A model generated the notes under the pieces. It ran no database searches. It was not told the DNA's origin and worked only from the letters and a program-made list of their open reading frames with translations. From positions 248,001-312,000 of the forward strand of contig CM075995.1 of NCBI GenBank assembly GCA_038087875.1: 64,000 bases of DNA, written 5' to 3'. Position numbers and translations under genes: made by a program. The DNA comes from Malacoraja senta (lineage: Eukaryota). Positions 3,009-42,949 of the stretch are shown here, piece by piece (the first letter of the stretch is position 1; each line of letters begins with the position of its first letter).

Positions 3009-3465
3009 CTACGAGGGGAAGGAATAAAAGAAAATAACTTCATAAGTTATAGGAGCAGAATTAGGCCATTCGGCCCATCGAGTCCACTCAGTTTCAGTTT
3101 TAGTTTCTTGTCACGTGTACCGAGCCTTTGTTGCGTGCTAACCAGTCCGCGGAAAAGACAATACATGATTACAACCGATCTATTCGCGGCACAGATACAT
3201 GATAGACATGATAAGGGAATAACGTTTAGTGCAAGGTAAAGCCAGTAAAGTCCGATCAAATATATTCCTCGATGAGGTAGACAGTAATTCAGGACTGCTC
3301 TCTGGTTGTGGTAGGCTGGTTGATGGCTGATCAATCTTTCCCTCTCAACTCAATTTTCCTGCCTTCTCCCCATAACCCCTGACACCCGTACTAATCAAAA
3401 ATCTGTCAATCTCCGCCTTCAAAATACCTATTGACGTCATCCACGGCCTTCTGTGGCAATGAATT

Positions 3466-3718
3466 CCACAGATTCACCACCCTCTGACTAAAGGCCACAG
3501 ATTCACCACCCTCTGACCAAAGACCACAGATTCACCACCCTCTGACCGAAGACCACAGATTCACCACCCTCTGACCGAAGACCACAGATTCACCACCCTC
3601 TGACCGAAGACCACAGATTCACCACCCTCTGACTAAAGACCACAGATTCACCATCCTCTGACTAAAGACCACAGATTCACCATCCTCTGACTAAAGACCA
3701 CAGATTCACCACCCTCTA
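3466..3718. repeat. 29-bp tandem repeat (ccacagattcaccaccctctgacyraaga)n, about 8.7 copies, derived from CR1
   Basis: Unit is the reverse complement of the CR1 segment encoding F.QRVVNLW. Confidence 0.95.
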
Positions 3719-3989
3719 CTTCCACAGAACAATAAACAATAATAATTCTTGATTGGTATCACACAAATAAAACAAACATCAAAATGAAGCTCAGTAAAAA
3801 GGAAGGAATTTACTTTCAAGTAAATAGAGCTAATTTGGGATATCAGAGTGCTAGTGAGAAATGATCTTCCCTTCCAACTCATCAGGTAATATCGTGCACG
3901 TGGAATGGTTGCGATGGGGAAGGCAGAGGGGAAGGGTAAGAGACAGGCAATGAAATGGGAGAAGAAAGATAAAAGGAGGGGAAAAGTGG

Positions 3990-4475
3990 AGTAAGAAAGA
4001 ACTGCAGATGCTGGTAAAATCGAAGGTAGACACAAAATGACAGCGGGTGAGGCAGCATCTCTGGGGAGAAGGAATGGGTGACGTTTTGGGTCGAGACCCT
4101 TCTTCAGACTGATGTGAGGTGAGGGGGCGGGACAAAGATAGAATGTAGGTGGAGGCAGTAGGATTGGTGGGAGAACTGGGAAGGGGGAGGGGATGGAGAG
4201 GGAAAGCAATGGCTGCCTGAAGTTAGAGAAGTCAACGTACATACCGCTGGGATGTAAACTACCCAGGCGAAATATGAGGTGCTGTTCCTCCAATTTGCGC
4301 TGGGACTCACTCTGACAATGGAGGAGGCCCAGGACAGAAAGGTCAGATTGGGAATGGGAGGGGGAGTTGAAGTACTGAGCAACCGGGAGATCAGGTAGGT
4401 TACGACGGATTGAGCGGAGGTGTTCAGTGAAACGATCGCCGAACCTGCGCTAGGTCTCGCCGATGTAGAGAAGAG
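3990..4475 (-). mobile_element. Penelope-like element 3' end (GIY-YIG endonuclease C-terminus plus pLTR)
   Basis: YIGET..RFGDRFTEHLRS..PVAQYFN..LEEQHLIFRLGSLHPSGM; related pieces at 19310-19675, 22055-22520, 24040-24425 and 30495-30915. Confidence 0.85.
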
Positions 4476-6305: not shown

Positions 6306-6404
6306 ACAAGCACATTTTCGTCATTCATATGCATCAACAAGGCCACATGTCTGTCCTTTTAACGAATGATAACTTGGATTTAATTTGTTGACAAATATAG
6401 TTAC

Positions 6405-6587: not shown

Positions 6588-6895
6588 AGGGGTGGCGCGG
6601 TGGCGCAGCGGTGGAGTTGCGGCCTTACAGCGCCAGGGACCCGGGTTCGATCCTGACCACGGGGTGCTGTCTGCACGGAGTTTGTACGTTCTCCCCGTGA
6701 CCTGCGTGGGTTTTCTCCGGGATTTCCGGTTTCCTCCCACACTCCAAAGACGTGCAGGTTTGTAGGTTAACTGGCTTGGTATAATTGTAAATTGTCCCTA
6801 GTTTGTGTAGGATAGTGTTAGTGTGCGGGGTTCGCTGGTTGGCACGGACTCGGTGGGCCGAAGGGCTCAGCTGTATCTCTAAACTAAACTAAATA
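6588..6895 (+). mobile_element. V-SINE (HE1-like), full length
   Basis: TGGCGCAGCGG A box, GGTTCGATCC B box; other plus-strand copies at 37055-37365, 42283-42600, 63180-63470 and 14900-15130 (5' truncated). Confidence 0.9.
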
Positions 6896-9153: not shown

Positions 9154-9204
9154 CTTGTTTTCATCCTCCTCATATGCAGAGACATCTGTTCGACTATTGG
9201 ATAC
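9154..9204 (-). CDS. KIF13A: KIF13A exon (51 nt, phase 0->0): VSNSRTDVSAYEEDENK
   Basis: ttttctgcag|GTATCC...AACAAG|gtgtgt; resembles KIF13A VSSSRPDLSGFDEDDK. Confidence 0.88.
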
Positions 9205-14895: not shown

Positions 14896-15198
14896 AGCAA
14901 CCAGTGCTGTCTGTATGGAGTTTGTACGTTCTCCGTGTGACTGCGTGGGTTTTCTCTGGGTGCTCCGGTTTCCTCTCACACTCCATTGATGTACAGGTTT
15001 GTAGGTTAATTGGCTTCGATAACAATTGTAAATTGTCCCAAGTGTGTGTAGGATAGTGCTATTGTATGGGGATCACTGGTCGGTGCGGACTCGGTGGGTC
15101 GAAGGGCCTGTTGTGTCTGAACTAAACTAAACAGAGCAGGTTGCGTGTCACGTTTTCATATTTCATTTGGATACAGCTTCTCTTTAGAAATGTGGAAA

Positions 15199-15232
15199 TT
15201 TATTTATTTTAAATGATGTCCATATTTTTATT
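15199..15232 (-). promoter_or_regulatory. Candidate polyadenylation signals (AATAAA) at and just after the gag stop codon
   Basis: + strand tttatt at 15227-15232, 15203-15208 and 15199-15204. Confidence 0.5.
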
Positions 15233-16331
15233 TGTCGACATGCTCAAAGCCAGGAAACAATGCTGCCGACTTGCTCGCTCTGTAGGGCTGTTTCCGTGAC
15301 TTGCTGCCTTTAACTTTATGGCCTTCCTGTCCACAGACGTAACATGTACAGGACCTTTCACAGTTGTGTGATGGTGTCGTTTTGCCGTCCAGGTTTGTTT
15401 TGAGCTTTGCCTCGCCTTTGTCAGATCCCGATGTCTTATCTGCCGTTGGGTTGGCTTCCGGGCCGGCCGAGTCCTGCAACTTCTCCATCCTCTGAAGCCT
15501 CTCCATTTGATCCATTTGGTGTAAAGCAAGTTGCTTCACTAACGTGGTTAGCTCTAGCAGTGCAGGGTCTTGCTCAAAACTCGACCCTGCTCCAGCCAAT
15601 TCAGAAGCATCTCCCAAGCATTTTTCACCAACTTGCGCAGAAGGAACTGGATCACCCCCTTCCTGTGGCTTTCCAAACTCCTTGTCTTTGCACGGCCTCG
15701 TTTCTTGCTCCTTGAACACGACCGACTTTGGGTTACGAGCTGGAGACTTCTGATAAATATTTTTCTCATGTGCCGAAACCTGTGGCTTAACTTTCAGATC
15801 CTTATGCGCAGAGGAGCTCCGCCTCCCGGCTTTTGCTTTGAAGGACCTTAACACCGCCGCCACAGAATAGGTGGCTTTGAATTCATTTGACTGCTCAAAG
15901 CTTTGAAGGAAACCAATCGCGGGGTCCAGTGAAGGCGGTGAGGTCGCATATTCTGCTCTGAGCTTCCCAAAGGCTCCGGCTGGGCTTTGGTCCCTCAATG
16001 GCATCTCCAACACAAGCATCTTCGCTCTTCCCTCCAGGTGGTGAAGCACGGTCGCAAACCCAAGTGCAGCAGGCAGTTGGTCAGCATCCAGCGTCTGCTG
16101 CATTTCCCTGATCCAATCTTCCACGTCAATCCCACTTGCCGGGTTCCCACCGAACTTGGGCGCACTCAGTAACCGGCGGGATACACTCGAGGAGTAACAC
16201 AGAGCCAGCGGGAATGATTCGGACTGACAGGAGAGGGCAGGAGGAAGGGACAGAATGTCCATTTCTGGCGGCTTCCACTGCTCTTCAGCTAAGTGACTGC
16301 TTGACTCTCTCGACTCAGCAAGCTTCTTTCT
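15228..16331 (-). CDS. Ty3/Gypsy Gag-derived (PNMA-like) reading frame, 367 codons from splice acceptor (344 aa from first ATG at 16262); probable alternative terminal exon of KIF13A
   Basis: Capsid-like PKFGG..VEDWIREM..VLHHLEGRAK..LRAEY; degenerate MHR-like FLQSFEQSNEFKATYS; coiled coil LLELTTLVKQLALHQMDQMERLQRMEKL; knuckle CYVCGQEGHKVKGS. The frame is open 23 codons upstream of the ATG, up to the acceptor tgtctgttccgtag|AGA. Confidence 0.85.
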   Translation of the reverse strand, partial: RKKLAESRESSSHLAEEQWKPPEMDILSLPPALSCQSESFPLALCYSSSVSRRLLSAPKFGGNPASGIDVEDWIREMQQTLDADQLPAALGFATVLHHLEGRAKMLVLEMPLRDQSPAGAFGKLRAEYATSPPSLDPAIGFLQSFEQSNEFKATYSVAAVLRSFKAKAGRRSSSAHKDLKVKPQVSAHEKNIYQKSPARNPKSVVFKEQETRPCKDKEFGKPQEGGDPVPSAQVGEKCLGDASELAGAGSSFEQDPALLELTTLVKQLALHQMDQMERLQRMEKLQDSAGPEANPTADKTSGSDKGEAKLKTNLDGKTTPSHNCERSCTCYVCGQEGHKVKGSKSRKQPYRASKSAALFPGFEHVDK

Positions 16332-17935
16332 CTACGGAACAGACATGAGCAACAGAGTTCAAGCAAGTGACCATTTCCCTTTGGCTTCCAAGCCACGTTA
16401 GACAGCCTGTGCTGCAGCAGGCATTTGCAAATGCAACAAAACACTGCAGCTTGCTTCACTAAAACCATAACTAAACCTTTACCCTCCGCCCTATCTTTGA
16501 TCTAGAAAGGCCACAGTAGCACCACCTGTGTTCATGAGGGTCCCAACCTGAAACATCATCTACCTACTTTCTCCAGAGATGCTGCCTGACCCGCTGAGTT
16601 ACTCCAGCACTTTTTGTCCATCCTTGGTTTAAACTAGCATTTGCAGTTCCTTTTTATTACATTATATCTGTTCATTTGTCACTTCACCAAAGTGCCACCT
16701 ATTGCACATTTAAAATAGGTACAAAATACACAAACATAAAATGTATATTTCTCAAATATATGGACAACAGATTAATTGGCTCAATTTAACATTGGTGGTT
16801 AAAAGAAGTCATAACGTGGGGCTTGATTTTATTACAGGGAGGGCGGTGGAGGCAGGTTCTCTGGATGCTTTCAAGAGAGAGCTAGATAGGGCTCTTAAAA
16901 ATAGCAGAGTCAGGGTATATGGGAAGAAGGCAGGAACGGGGTACTGATTGGGGATGATCAGCCATGATCACATTGAATGGCGGTGCTGGCTCGAAGGGCC
17001 AAATGGCCTGCTCCTGCACCTATTGTCAATTGTCTATTACTCACTTCTTAAATACTTTTTGTGTTTACAGAGATCAGTGGATAACAAAATACATACTTTG
17101 TCTCAAACTTTGTAACACCTAATGTAACACAATGGACAGGTACATGGATAGGAAAAGTTTAGAGGGATAAATATGGGCCAAACTTGGGCAGGCGGGGACC
17201 AGCTTAGTGGAGCAACCTGGTCAGCATAGACGGGATGGGCAAAGGGGCCCGTTTCCGCGCTGAATGACTCCATGTTTAGCTCAGTTTAGTTTATTCTCAC
17301 GTGTACCGAGGTACAGTGAAAAGATTTTGTTGCGTGCTAACCAGTCAGCAGAAAGACAATACGTGATTACAATCGATCCATTTACTGTGTACATGGTAAG
17401 GGAATAACGTCGAGTGCAGGGTAAAGCCGGCAAAGTCCAAGGATAGTCCGAGGGTCACCAAAGAGGTAGACAGTAGTTCAGCACTGCTGTCCGGTTGTGG
17501 TAGGATGGTTCAGTTGCCTGATAACAGCTGGGAAGAAACTGTCCCTGAATCTGGAGGTGTGCGTTTTCACACTTCTGTACCTTTTGCCTGATGGGAGAGG
17601 GGAGAAGAGGGAGTGGCCAGGGTGTGACTCGTCCTCGATTATGTAGCTGGCATTGCTGAGGCAGCGTGAACTACAAATGACAAAGGTATAAATAAAGAAA
17701 TCTTAATTCTTTTACAGCTCTTTGCTAAAATGTTTCTAATTAGATGTGCAAGTCCTACATTCAGCAGCATGAAATGAGAGCAATCAATTCTAAAGCTGTA
17801 AGCTCACCTCCCTGTGGTTTTAATCATAATTGCACACGCAGTTATGAAAATACATTTAATACCGCAAAGAGGATAAAAAGTGCAGACGTTGGGAATCTGA
17901 AATAAAATGGAAAATGCTGCAAAAACAGCATCCTC

Positions 17936-18028
17936 ATTGCTGTCGCCACAGAATGGGAGGCTTTGTGTTCATTTGACTGCCCAAATATTTGATAGAAACC
18001 AATTGTGGGGATCAGTGAAGGATGAGGT
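17936..18028 (-). pseudogene. Diverged partial second copy of the gag frame (PSLIPTIGFYQIFGQSNEHKASHSVATAMR)
   Basis: Aligns by eye with 15852-15945 (PSLDPAIGFLQSFEQSNEFKATYSVAAVLR) at roughly 80% nt identity; truncated by an adjacent SINE. Confidence 0.8.
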
Positions 18029-19864: not shown

Positions 19865-19917
19865 AACTTGCAGCCTGACTTCTTGTATCTCATCTTCAAG
19901 TGTCCCGAAAAGACATA
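19865..19917 (-). CDS. Candidate alternative KIF13A linker exon (53 nt, phase 1->0): (V)CLFGTLEDEIQEVRLQV
   Basis: ttttcatgtttatattcaag|TATGTC...CAAGTT|gtaagt; consensus donor; phases bridge the 67-nt candidate to the gag exon. Confidence 0.4.
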
Positions 19918-20212
19918 CTTGAATATAAACATGAAAATGTAGGCACTTAAAAATCATACAGCATAGAAACAACCTACTTTCAGCCCAACCTGCCCATGCT
20001 GACCAAGAAGCCCCATCTACATTCGTCCCACCTGTCCGCGTTTGGCCCAAATATCCCTCTAAATATTAAAGGACACAAAGTGCTGGAGCAATCAGCAGGT
20101 CAGGCAGCATGTGTAAGAAAGAACTACAGATGCTGGTTAAAATCAAAGGTAGACACAAAATGCTAGAGTAACTCAGCGGGACAGGCAGCATCTCTGGAGA
20201 AAAGGAATGGGC

Positions 20213-23791: not shown

Positions 23792-24507
23792 CTATAAATC
23801 CACCATGTCTAAGGCGTTGCGTATAACACTTACTTCAAGTAGATTGGACTGCAGCCAAACTTAAAGAATATTCCATTTGCATGGGGCTTGGTTTGTTATG
23901 AAGTCTTATGATAAGTAACATTTTAACGCCATTCATCAACTGGACGATAGATTGTTGATGCCCCAGATAATTTCACTTTAAGCCAAGAAAGTTTCTAATA
24001 CAGAATGTGACACAAATTGTGTCAGAGTGAAGCCAATCGTAAAGTGGGGGAACAGCACCTCATATTTCACTTGGGCAGCTTACAACCCAGCGGTATGAAT
24101 ATTGATTTCTCCAATTTCAAATAACCATTGCTTTCCCCCTCGCTCCATCCACCCCCACCCTCCTCCCCCCCCACCCTAGTCGTCCTACTAGTTTCACTGT
24201 CGTCCTACTTAGTTTCCACAGGCAATGGTGGGCTCTACCTTTCCTTGATCATCATTGCTGGCTTTCAGAGCTTTCATTCATTTGTTCTATATATATATCT
24301 AGTTTCCCTCCACTCTGACTCTCCGTCTGAAGAAGGGTCTGGACCGGAAACGTCACCTACTCCTTTCCTCCAGAGACGCTGCCTGACAAGCTGAGTTACT
24401 TCAGCACTTTGCGTCTATCTTCGGTGCTGCACACTATGCCTGGTGCCCATTCCTACGCACCGGGTGTTAAATGAGTCTGCTGATTGTTGACTTGCTGTGG
24501 TACGTAC

Positions 24508-24585
24508 ATGGTGAACGTTGGGCGTGCTGACGCTCCTCTTCATGTGCTTCCCTTTGGATGAAAGTGCTTCTTTCACAGTAACAGC
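24508..24585 (-). CDS. KIF13A: KIF13A exon (78 nt, phase 0->0): AVTVKEALSSKGKHMKRSVSTPNVHH
   Basis: ctgtattag|GCTGTT...CACCAT|gtacgt. Confidence 0.94.
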
Positions 24586-32419: not shown

Positions 32420-32780
32420 CCACGATGGCGCAAGGTTAGAGCTGCTGCCTTACAGCGCCAGAGACCCGGGTTCGATCCTGATAGCGCCAGAGACCCGGGT
32501 TCGATCCTGATAGCGCTAGGGACCCGGGTTCGATCCTGACTATGGGTGCGGTCTGTACGGAGTTCGTACGTTCTGCCCGTGACCTGCGTGGGCTTTCTCC
32601 AGGTGCTCCAGTTTCCTCCCACACTCCAAAGATATACAGGTTTGTAGGTTAATTGGCTTCGGTAAAAATAATAAATTATTCCTAGCGAGTAGGATAGTGC
32701 AGGTGTACGGTGTGATCGCTGGTCGGCGTAGACTCGGTGGGCCGAAGGGCATGTTTCTGTTTTTCTAATGTCTAGAGTGT
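32420..32780 (+). mobile_element. V-SINE with triplicated B-box segment
   Basis: agcgccagagacccgggttcgatcctga(t) x3. Confidence 0.85.
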
Positions 32781-41765: not shown

Positions 41766-42949
41766 ATATATGAGGATAGGTGACCTTTCGGGTCGGGGAC
41801 CCTTCTTCAGACTGCTCTCGTATCAAGCAAGTTTAGTTTTAGAGATAATGTGCTTTGGGGTGGACTGCGGTGCAGCTGGTAGATCTGCTGCTTCACAGCA
41901 CCAGAGACCCAGGTTCGATCCTGACCTTGGTTGCTGTCTGTGTGGAGTTTGCATGTTTTCCCCGTCCATGTACCTGTCCAACTGTCTCCTGAACAAAATG
42001 ATAGTCCCTGCCTCAACTTCCTCCTCTGGTCGCTCGTTCCATACACCCACCACCCTTTGTGTGAAAAAGTTACCCCTCAGATTCCTATCCAATCTTTCCC
42101 CCTCACTTTAAACTCGGTTCCCCTACTCTGGGCAAGACTCTGTGCGTCTACCCAATTTATTCCTCTCACGATCTTGTACACCTCTATAAGATCACCCCCT
42201 CATCCTCCTGAGCTCCAAGGAATAGAGTCACAACCTGCTCACCCTCTCCCTGTAGCTCAGGCCCTCGAGTCCTGGCAAAAATGGGCGGTTACTGTGGCGC
42301 AGCGGTAGATTTGCTGCCTTACAGCGAATGAGGCGCCATAGACCCGGGTTCGATTCCGACTACGGGTGCTGTCTGTACGGAGTTTGTACGTTCTCACCGT
42401 GACCAGCGTGGGTTTTCGCTGAGATCTTTGGTTTCCTCCCACATTCCAAAGACGTACGGGTTTGTAGGTTAATTGGCTTGGTAAATGTAAAAATTGTCCC
42501 TAGTGGGTTTAGGATAGTGTTAATGAGCGGGGATCGCTGGGCGGCGAGGACCCGGTGGGCCGAAGGGCCTGTTTCCGCTCTGTATCGCTAAACTAAACAA
42601 AAATATCCTCGTAAATCTTCTCTGCACCCTTTCCAGCTTGACAACGTCACATGTGGATGTGCTTCAGCCGGCTAGAGTGCAGCAGCATATAAAAACAGCA
42701 AAGAGTGTTGCTGCAACTGTTGACGTCCATATCTGGAGTGCTTGCCTGCAGCCTGGGTCTTTTTTTTTAAGGAGGGAGACCCTTTGGGGGAAAGTTTGCT
42801 GGGCTGATTCCAGAGATGAAAGAGTTGTCCTACACTGCAAGGTTGAGCAGGCTGGACATTTACTCATTGAAGTTTACGGAAATGAGATAACAAGTGAAAG
42901 GCCTGGATAGAGTGGAAGTGGAGAGGATGTTTCCTCCATTGATAAGAGG

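Follow-up and report, generated by a model that had tools for sequence, protein, structure and literature searches.

A Gag-derived open reading frame as a probable alternative last exon of KIF13A in a skate and other cartilaginous fishes

Why does an intron of a kinesin gene hold a long retrotransposon-like open reading frame (ORF) that begins exactly at a splice acceptor? This question was raised by a 64,000-nucleotide stretch of the genome of the skate Malacoraja senta (the window; positions 248,001 to 312,000 of the forward strand of contig CM075995.1, assembly GCA_038087875.1), which carries exons of the motor protein gene KIF13A on its minus strand. A first-pass annotation, made from the letters alone, had proposed that the frame is a domesticated Gypsy gag placed as an in-frame last exon of KIF13A. 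We found that this is probably correct: the frame is best read as a remnant of a Ty3/Gypsy-type (Metaviridae, PNMA-like) gag that was captured in a KIF13A intron and kept as an alternative last exon. The annotated isoforms of sharks and a chimaera suggest that a motor protein bearing a tail of viral origin is made in cartilaginous fishes.

The frame runs from stop to stop on the minus strand at 15228-16331 (367 codons, 1104 nt, ending in TAA). It is the longest open run in the six frames of the window, and the runner-up has 247 codons. At the stop frequency of the window (0.0465 per codon), 1.5e-4 open runs of 367 codons are expected. The G+C content of the frame is 0.52 versus 0.45 for the window. 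We found that its 5' boundary is the TAG of an acceptor-like sequence, TGCTCATGTCTGTTCCGTAG/AGAAAGAAG (here and below, a slash marks a junction), in which 13 of the 18 positions from -20 to -3 are pyrimidines. The TAA lies at 15230-15228 with AATAAA signals around it; the claim that such signals stand at the stop and about 20 nt beyond was borne out, and three hexamers were located (Table 1).

We mapped the KIF13A exons by aligning the chimaera KIF13A protein and the canonical KIF13A protein of the skate A. radiata to the window with tblastn. The exon ...KHMKRSVSTPNVHH (...KRSVSTPNVHH) terminates at 24508 in phase 0, at CAT/GTACGT. The next canonical exon is at 9204-9154, which places the Gag exon within the 15.3-kb intron downstream of ...STPNVHH; tblastn puts it there too, after the canonical exon that ends at 24508 and before the one that starts at 9204. 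Canonical isoforms continue NVHH/VSNSR in phase 0, so the first codon of the frame, AGA, is in phase with the donor. A splice-competent, in-frame layout is thus complete, with a phase-0 donor, an acceptor at the start of the frame, a stop, and a poly(A) signal. The frame and the phase of the STPNVHH exon were as first described. A second donor, at 19865, had also been put forward for the Gag exon. The segment at 19865-19930 (minus strand) has splice-like borders (..ttcaag/TATGTC...CAAGTT/gtaagt); it has no counterpart in the canonical A. radiata KIF13A protein, and we dropped this candidate.

The join of STPNVHH to the frame had been predicted from the skate DNA. We found it in annotated KIF13A isoforms of four other cartilaginous fishes: the chimaera Callorhinchus milii and the sharks Pristiophorus japonicus, Mustelus asterias, and Chiloscyllium plagiosum. 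In all of the fused isoforms the junction reads NVHH/XKKLAE, where X is Arg or Lys; in the C. milii record A0A4W3IBK6 it reads ...RSISTPNVHH/RKKLAEPVEAS... We searched 1.84 billion representative proteins with the skate frame using HMMER and obtained 51 matches with an E value of ≤0.001. The second-best match was C. milii KIF13A, whose residues 1331-1706 align with skate residues 1-362 at 41% identity (E 2.3e-60). This protein has kinesin motor, FHA, KIF1B, and DUF3694 domains and a zinc knuckle that reaches the threshold. We then used the C. milii tail as the query against proteins of 939-2989 residues, which gave 891 matches. Among the best 120 of these 891, three covered the full tail (C. 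milii, P. japonicus X2, and M. asterias X4), and the other 117 were canonical KIF13A proteins covering only the shared 12-22%. The clusters of the tail-search matches contributed P. japonicus X1 and C. plagiosum X6. The same join is thus on record in UniProt, for C. milii, and separately in NCBI RefSeq, for the sharks. The fused isoforms are without the CAP-Gly domain (PF01302) listed for canonical non-mammalian KIF13A. As a separate observation, CAP-Gly is listed for KIF13A of fishes, amphibians, reptiles, and marsupials, and several placental-mammal entries are without it.

The tails of the five species are colinear from the first residue to a common stop, and those of the elasmobranchs end in ...H(V/F/L)DK. 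Tail identity is 51-57% between skate and sharks and 41% between skate and chimaera; it is 75% between P. japonicus and M. asterias, and 47-52% between those two sharks and the chimaera. No neutral sequence would keep either an open frame or 41-57% identity across sharks and chimaera. At the exon start, RKKLAE is identical to C. milii at 6 of 6 residues. The best-conserved segment is a long helix, DPALLELTTLVKQLALHQKDQMERLQRMEKLQ: skate and sharks are identical at 76-81% of its residues, P. japonicus and M. asterias at 93%.

We built a maximum-likelihood tree of 35 rows, comprising six KIF13A-linked tails and 29 free-standing relatives; five matches shorter than 250 residues were excluded, as were most matches ranked below P0032. 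All six KIF13A-linked tails group in a single clade (support 100/100), of which the chimaera is the outermost member. The free-standing relatives are 300-660 residues long and include proteins of the teleosts Oryzias latipes and Goodea atripinnis. Some belong to multi-member clusters of variable length (14 and 19 members), as expected for a retroelement family. These sequences show a single origin, and the capture into the KIF13A intron probably happened before chimaeras and elasmobranchs split. That split is roughly 400 million years old.

The multi-copy relatives in some fish genomes, and the short interspersed element (SINE)-like repeats that flank the exon at 14904-15133 and 16537-16656, might suggest something more ordinary, namely, a fairly recent gag insertion from a long terminal repeat (LTR) retrotransposon that is open by chance, with the fused isoforms being prediction artifacts. 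We found one locus in the 1.94-Gb genome, both with the skate protein as the query (one match among 20 scored) and with a free-standing relative as the query (one match among 97 scored). The many near-identical, LTR-flanked copies that would mark a recent insertion were not found. No LTR-like direct repeats bracketing the exon were found in the window, and no reverse transcriptase, protease, or integrase domain was seen in any of the window's 20 largest ORFs besides the exon. The exon is single copy, has no LTR or pol found nearby, and occupies the same position in distant species, as expected of a domesticated sequence. Colinear orthologs stand at the same KIF13A junction from sharks to chimaera, and the join is named by both UniProt and RefSeq. 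A recent insertion or an annotation artifact is effectively excluded.

Apart from one fragment, the exon is unique within the window. The fragment lies about 2 kb upstream in the intron, in the same orientation, at 17932-18021 (minus strand; the 78-nt match is at 17944-18021). At an identity of 83% in nucleotides and 63% in protein, its 30 codons, PSLIPTIGFYQIFGQSNEHKASHSVATAMR, copy residues 133-162 of the Gag exon. Its identity to the shark tails is lower (45%), and it therefore looks like a lineage-specific partial duplication. The SINE-like repeats belong to two dispersed short-repeat families with dozens of copies in the window at 75-90% identity. They are not LTRs of the gag remnant, and the two copies near the exon flank it within about 100-200 nt and do not bracket it. 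Other copies of these flanking repeats are at 6664-6893, 32546-32755, and 42366-42599.

The identification of the frame as Gag, made at first from its motifs, held in part. Pfam assigned no Gag family to the skate protein at threshold. Its only entry was zf-CCHC, with an E value of 0.03 and 14.8 bits against a cutoff of 20.8; the C. milii tail reaches 22.0 bits. At the curated thresholds, the skate protein matched none of the profiles PF03732, PF14893, and Ty3_capsid. Among 20 relatives, zf-CCHC is listed for 15, and PNMA (PF14893) and Retrotrans_gag (PF03732) appear below threshold for 6 and 2, respectively. Atlas feature neighbors bear Gag families at scores of 0.90-0.91, which we took as a lead only. 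Since Pfam is silent on Gag in the skate protein, the Gag identity comes through relatives and structure.

We modeled the skate protein with AlphaFold2 from a 54-row alignment. Residues ~55-130 form a strand and four helices with a predicted local distance difference test score (pLDDT) above 90. The helix at 256-288 has a pLDDT of about 90, and the knuckle is also confident. The rest is predicted to be disordered, including residues 1-48; past the N-lobe of the capsid (CA) domain there are two weak helices (137-170) and then disorder (176-246). We compared residues 49-131 with 48,161 chains using VIA-align and found that the best match was the PNMA2 capsid (8rb3_A), with a Z score of 9.7, a root mean square deviation of 3.0, and 82 aligned residues. 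Other matches were dArc1 (Z 8.5), rat Arc (8.4), Copia (8.3), Ty1 Drt2 (8.3), PEG10 (7.4), the Arc N-lobe with a stargazin peptide (6.2), and the Ty3 N-terminal domain (5.9). Every one of the top 27 rows was a retroelement or retroviral capsid. The fit to PNMA, Arc, and Ty3 capsids that the first-pass annotation led us to expect was thus seen for the N-lobe.

Foldseek gave no row with an E value of ≤0.001 for the skate model, and its rows were capsids throughout, at E values of at least 0.05. The fold assignment therefore rests on VIA-align and on the model of a relative. The free-standing relative P0008 (mean pLDDT, 80.9) was modeled with a CA of two lobes at residues ~30-206, a long helix at 232-265, and a knuckle, and it matches the entire PNMA2 capsid domain (E 4.7e-5, 173 columns, 20% identity). 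A profile search of the Protein Data Bank, made without full-length kinesin rows, gave nucleocapsid-knuckle matches at an E value of ~3e-5; PNMA2 appeared at 0.08-0.4, which is not significant. The single-sequence search gave one knuckle match only (E 0.39).

The long helix of the exon corresponds to the helix between CA and knuckle in the free-standing relatives. The two-lobed CA needed for capsid lattices is absent: in the alignment, the second lobe is mostly low complexity in all five species. According to the model, the exon is a half-capsid that retains the CA N-lobe, the helix, and the knuckle. Because the CA C-lobe is lost, capsid formation is doubtful, and the idea that the fusion could carry a capsid-forming module is weakened. 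For two copies of helix residues 244-296, a complex prediction run without controls scored 0.02 against a mark of 0.32, and we used it neither way.

Several observations weigh against the reading of the frame as a working last exon of KIF13A. None of the 10 named KIF13A isoforms of A. radiata and L. erinacea (X1-X5 each) is fused, and no batoid fused form turned up in the protein searches made. The seven sequencing-run holders found, from four studies, include none recorded as RNA. Elsewhere, the fused isoforms are automated predictions; automated pipelines as a rule require transcript support for such isoforms. Among 5.8 billion proteins of comparable length, a word-indexed search yielded 5872 candidates, of which a single one was a relative. 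This protein, P0002, has 308 residues, is 91% identical to the skate frame, and evidently comes from another skate. P0002 was called from a Met at the position of skate Lys59, and the upstream 58 codons are not covered. Finally, the three sharks and the chimaera retain every zinc ligand of the knuckle (CX2CX4HX4C); in both skates the fourth, Cys, is replaced by Ser. The silence of Pfam on Gag, described above, counts on the same side.

Part of this evidence would fit a nested gene in skates, in which the ATG at 16262 opens a 344-residue product made from its own promoter in the KIF13A intron and unspliced to KIF13A; such a gene may coexist with the fusion. The ATG has a purine at -3 and a G at +4, P0002 is the call of a stand-alone ORF from a contig of 1504 nt, and the named skate isoforms are all unfused. 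However, the frame reaches 23 codons upstream of the ATG, exactly to the acceptor. We found that these codons are as well conserved as the rest: residues 1-51 are 59% identical to P. japonicus, and the N-lobe is 60% identical. A Met occupies the ATG column in only one of the four other species; the residue there is Leu in M. asterias and C. plagiosum and Ile in C. milii. This argues against a nested gene. In addition, no stand-alone protein of the clade is annotated in any shark within the searches made. We consider a nested gene unlikely.

The lost Cys could also point to a relic, that is, an exon functional in the chondrichthyan ancestor, sharks, and chimaeras that is unused in skates and is drifting, still unbroken, toward a pseudo-exon. 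Consistently with this, no batoid fused isoform is annotated within the searches made, the skate branch of the tree is long (0.76), and 27 substitutions over 308 residues and one in-frame codon deletion separate the two skates. We compared the rates of three taxa (skate, C. plagiosum, and C. milii), taking the canonical skate sequence from A. radiata, not from the window species. The skate/shark branch ratio was 1.47 over the KIF13A body and 1.45 over the canonical tail as well as over the Gag exon. These nearly equal ratios indicate that there is no relaxation specific to the Gag exon in skates and that the skate lineage is faster everywhere. Relative to the canonical tail, the Gag exon evolved 1.98 times as fast in the skate, 1.98 times as fast in the shark, and 2.00 times as fast in the chimaera. 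By these protein-level proxies, the exon appears to be under the same relative constraint in the skate as in species with an annotated fused isoform. Skate-specific decay, which we had suspected from the lost Cys, the long branch, and crude 31-mer shares, was set aside by these rates.

The differences between the two skates also avoid the structured parts, with 7 of 142 sites differing there and 20 of 166 in the remainder (Fisher P = 0.04); one of those seven is the Lys-to-Met change at the called start of P0002. The codon deletion, which is the sole indel, keeps the frame, and in the window neither the frame nor the acceptor nor the poly(A) signals are damaged. A relic is thus quite improbable, and the preferred reading remains a last exon kept in use.

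In both skates with named isoforms, KIF13A also has an annotated short form: X5 of L. erinacea and A. radiata (P0212 and P0213) ends ...ETFGLVVDTNEN after an extra tail exon. Alternative 3' ends of KIF13A are therefore already used in skates, independently of the Gag exon.

If the Gag exon is used as a last exon, the donor at 24507 would splice to the acceptor at 16332 in place of 9205, and cleavage at the AATAAA signals just past the TAA would end the transcript. The choice of acceptor, coupled to polyadenylation after 15228, would switch the KIF13A tail. The product would keep the KIF13A motor, the FHA domain, and the stalk through ...STPNVHH, followed by a 367-residue Gag-derived tail in place of the canonical disordered tail and the CAP-Gly domain. 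We infer that this skate, too, probably makes the fused isoform. With the canonical tail and its CAP-Gly domain swapped out, KIF13A cargo should change. Having lost the C-lobe, the Gag tail would most likely serve as an alternative cargo-selecting or self-associating module and not as a shell. The N-lobe may act as a docking domain for peptides or proteins, by analogy with Arc and with mammalian half-capsid genes, and the long helix may be an association element. An intact knuckle would add nucleic acid binding in sharks and the chimaera, though probably not in skates. These functions are wholly inferred, that of the N-lobe from its likeness to Arc.

A more ambitious possibility is that a kinesin-3 with a Gag tail has been kept since before the chimaera-elasmobranch divergence as a motor-coupled carrier of RNA or of the Gag-like particles of its relatives, with the knuckle binding nucleic acid and the N-lobe and helix self-associating. 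We think that this is improbable. If it were true, it would link Arc/PNMA-type RNA handling physically and directly to cytoskeletal transport, and it would be among the oldest known vertebrate Gag co-options.

Several known systems resemble the proposed last exon. Arc and dArc1 share the CA-lobe fold with it, and the Arc N-lobe is known for binding peptides, with which the title of the structure entry (Arc N-lobe with stargazin peptide) agrees. In contrast to the exon, Arc has both lobes, forms capsids, is free-standing, has no knuckle in mammals, and has a separate origin. SCAN-domain zinc finger proteins and host-transposase fusions are cases in which a protein domain of a transposable element was captured as an exon into a multidomain host protein. 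SCAN is a derivative of the CA C-terminal lobe found in transcription factors, and the transposase fusions come from DNA transposons. To our knowledge, neither involves a cytoskeletal motor. Host-transposase fusion genes were reportedly the subject of Cosby et al. 2021, a paper that PMC12129022 cites.

The PNMA family (PF14893) provides the best structural match of the exon N-lobe, and its whole two-lobed capsid domain is matched by the free-standing relative. Some PNMA members bear a CCHC knuckle. The exon falls outside the PNMA family proper: PF14893 matches stay below threshold, with none on the skate protein, and the exon has no C-lobe. PNMA genes are stand-alone, intronless mammalian genes, whereas the exon is a terminal kinesin exon of cartilaginous fishes. 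The N-terminal RNA-binding-like domain described for PNMA genes in the available text of Henriques et al. (PMC10516033) is also missing from the exon, whose residues 1-48 are predicted to be disordered. The same text describes mammalian half-capsid genes that have the N-lobe only, such as RTL8. As far as that text goes, they share with the exon the metaviral N-lobe fold and neighboring single helices and disorder. This architecture suggests a regulatory or binding role over shell building. They are independent genes of placental mammals; the exon would be spliced onto a motor protein and is far older.

The closest route of origin is that of Lyosin (L1 ORF1p-MYL4) and other ORF1p fusion isoforms, where L1 is long interspersed element 1 (LINE-1). 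According to the accessible portion of Kitao et al. 2025 (PMC12129022), a retroelement ORF in a host gene became an alternatively spliced coding exon, and such fusions have been conserved since the Paleozoic with lineage-specific loss. There, the donor is LINE-1 ORF1 and the host of Lyosin is a myosin light chain; here, they are an LTR gag and a kinesin heavy chain. The ORF1p part is the first coding exon in two genes (PMC12129022, Fig. 6 legend), and Gag here is the last exon. The gag-host gene fusions Crtg10-KELP and Crtg14-PEX14, as given in the accessible text of Wang and Han 2021 (PMC8321522), are a precedent for co-opted LTR-retrotransposon gag fused to host genes, in other hosts and with other partners. 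The words kinesin, KIF13, cartilaginous, and Callorhinchus have no occurrence in the available text of PMC8321522.

The first-pass annotation knew of no description of such a fusion. Apart from subscription-only papers and supplements, the full-text literature searched likewise yielded no account of any kinesin-Gag or KIF13A-Gag protein. The fused isoforms themselves are already in public databases. What is new here is a probable Gag co-option in which a motor protein gained an alternative last exon before the chimaera-elasmobranch split. Domesticated Gag genes such as Arc, PNMA, and RTL/PEG10 are studied intensively; in the literature found, they are stand-alone and mostly mammalian or tetrapod; here, Gag would be the terminal exon of a microtubule motor. 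If this is true, it would push vertebrate Gag co-option back to the base of the cartilaginous fishes and would be the LTR-retrotransposon counterpart to the L1 ORF1p fusion isoforms. It would also offer a natural experiment in which a kinesin is tethered to a solitary capsid N-lobe together with a conserved helix and a knuckle, with a cargo switch, motor clustering, or RNA carriage as candidate outcomes.

Table 1. Coordinates of KIF13A exons and Gag-exon features in the window, with database records of the fused isoforms
Feature	Position or record	Strand	Remarks
Upstream KIF13A exons	61297-61196, 59855-59712, 56808-56749, 51072-50944	-	tblastn
Upstream KIF13A exons (continued)	34142-33963, 31459-31349, 28291-28133, 24585-24508	-	tblastn
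Constitutive KIF13A exon, encodes AVTVKEALSSKGKHMKRSVSTPNVHH	24508-24585	-	phase-0 end; canonical protein aligned by tblastn
GTACGT donor after the STPNVHH exon	24507-24502	-	could serve canonical and Gag-exon splices alike
3' splice site region of the Gag exon	16332-16366	-	pyrimidine-rich tract, CTCAT branch-point-like motif, AG at 16333-16332
Putative Gag-derived alternative last exon, 367 codons plus TAA	15228-16331	-	colinear with KIF13A isoform tails of three sharks and a chimaera
First ATG of the frame (codon 24)	16260-16262	-	context gaaATGg; candidate start of a nested product
CA N-lobe, residues 49-131	15939-16187	-	predicted strand and four helices; pLDDT >90 over ~55-130
Long conserved helix, residues 247-292, DPALLELTTLVKQLALHQ.DQMERLQRMEKLQ	15456-15593	-	pLDDT ~90
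Degenerate zinc knuckle CYVCGQEGHKVKGS, residues 330-343	15303-15344	-	CX2CX4HX4S
Three AATAAA hexamers	15227-15232, 15203-15208, 15199-15204	-	first overlaps the stop; latter two ~20-30 nt 3' of the stop
Next canonical KIF13A exon, VSNSRTDVSAYEEDENK	9154-9204	-	alternative partner of the 24508 donor
Further canonical tail exons	6516-6403, 3009-2860	-	tblastn
Callorhinchus milii fused isoform	UniProt A0A4W3IBK6		"Kinesin family member 13A," 1708 aa
Pristiophorus japonicus fused isoforms	KIF13A X1 and X2		
Mustelus asterias fused isoform	KIF13A X4, XP_078098030.1		
Chiloscyllium plagiosum fused isoform	KIF13A X6, XP_043575067.1		

The second-longest frame of the window lies at 3706-4449 on the minus strand, within the intron that separates the tail exon ending at 6403 from the one starting at 3009. 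Its 247 codons gave only a match below threshold to the Pfam family EMC3_TMCO1 (20.2 bits against a cutoff of 27.1).

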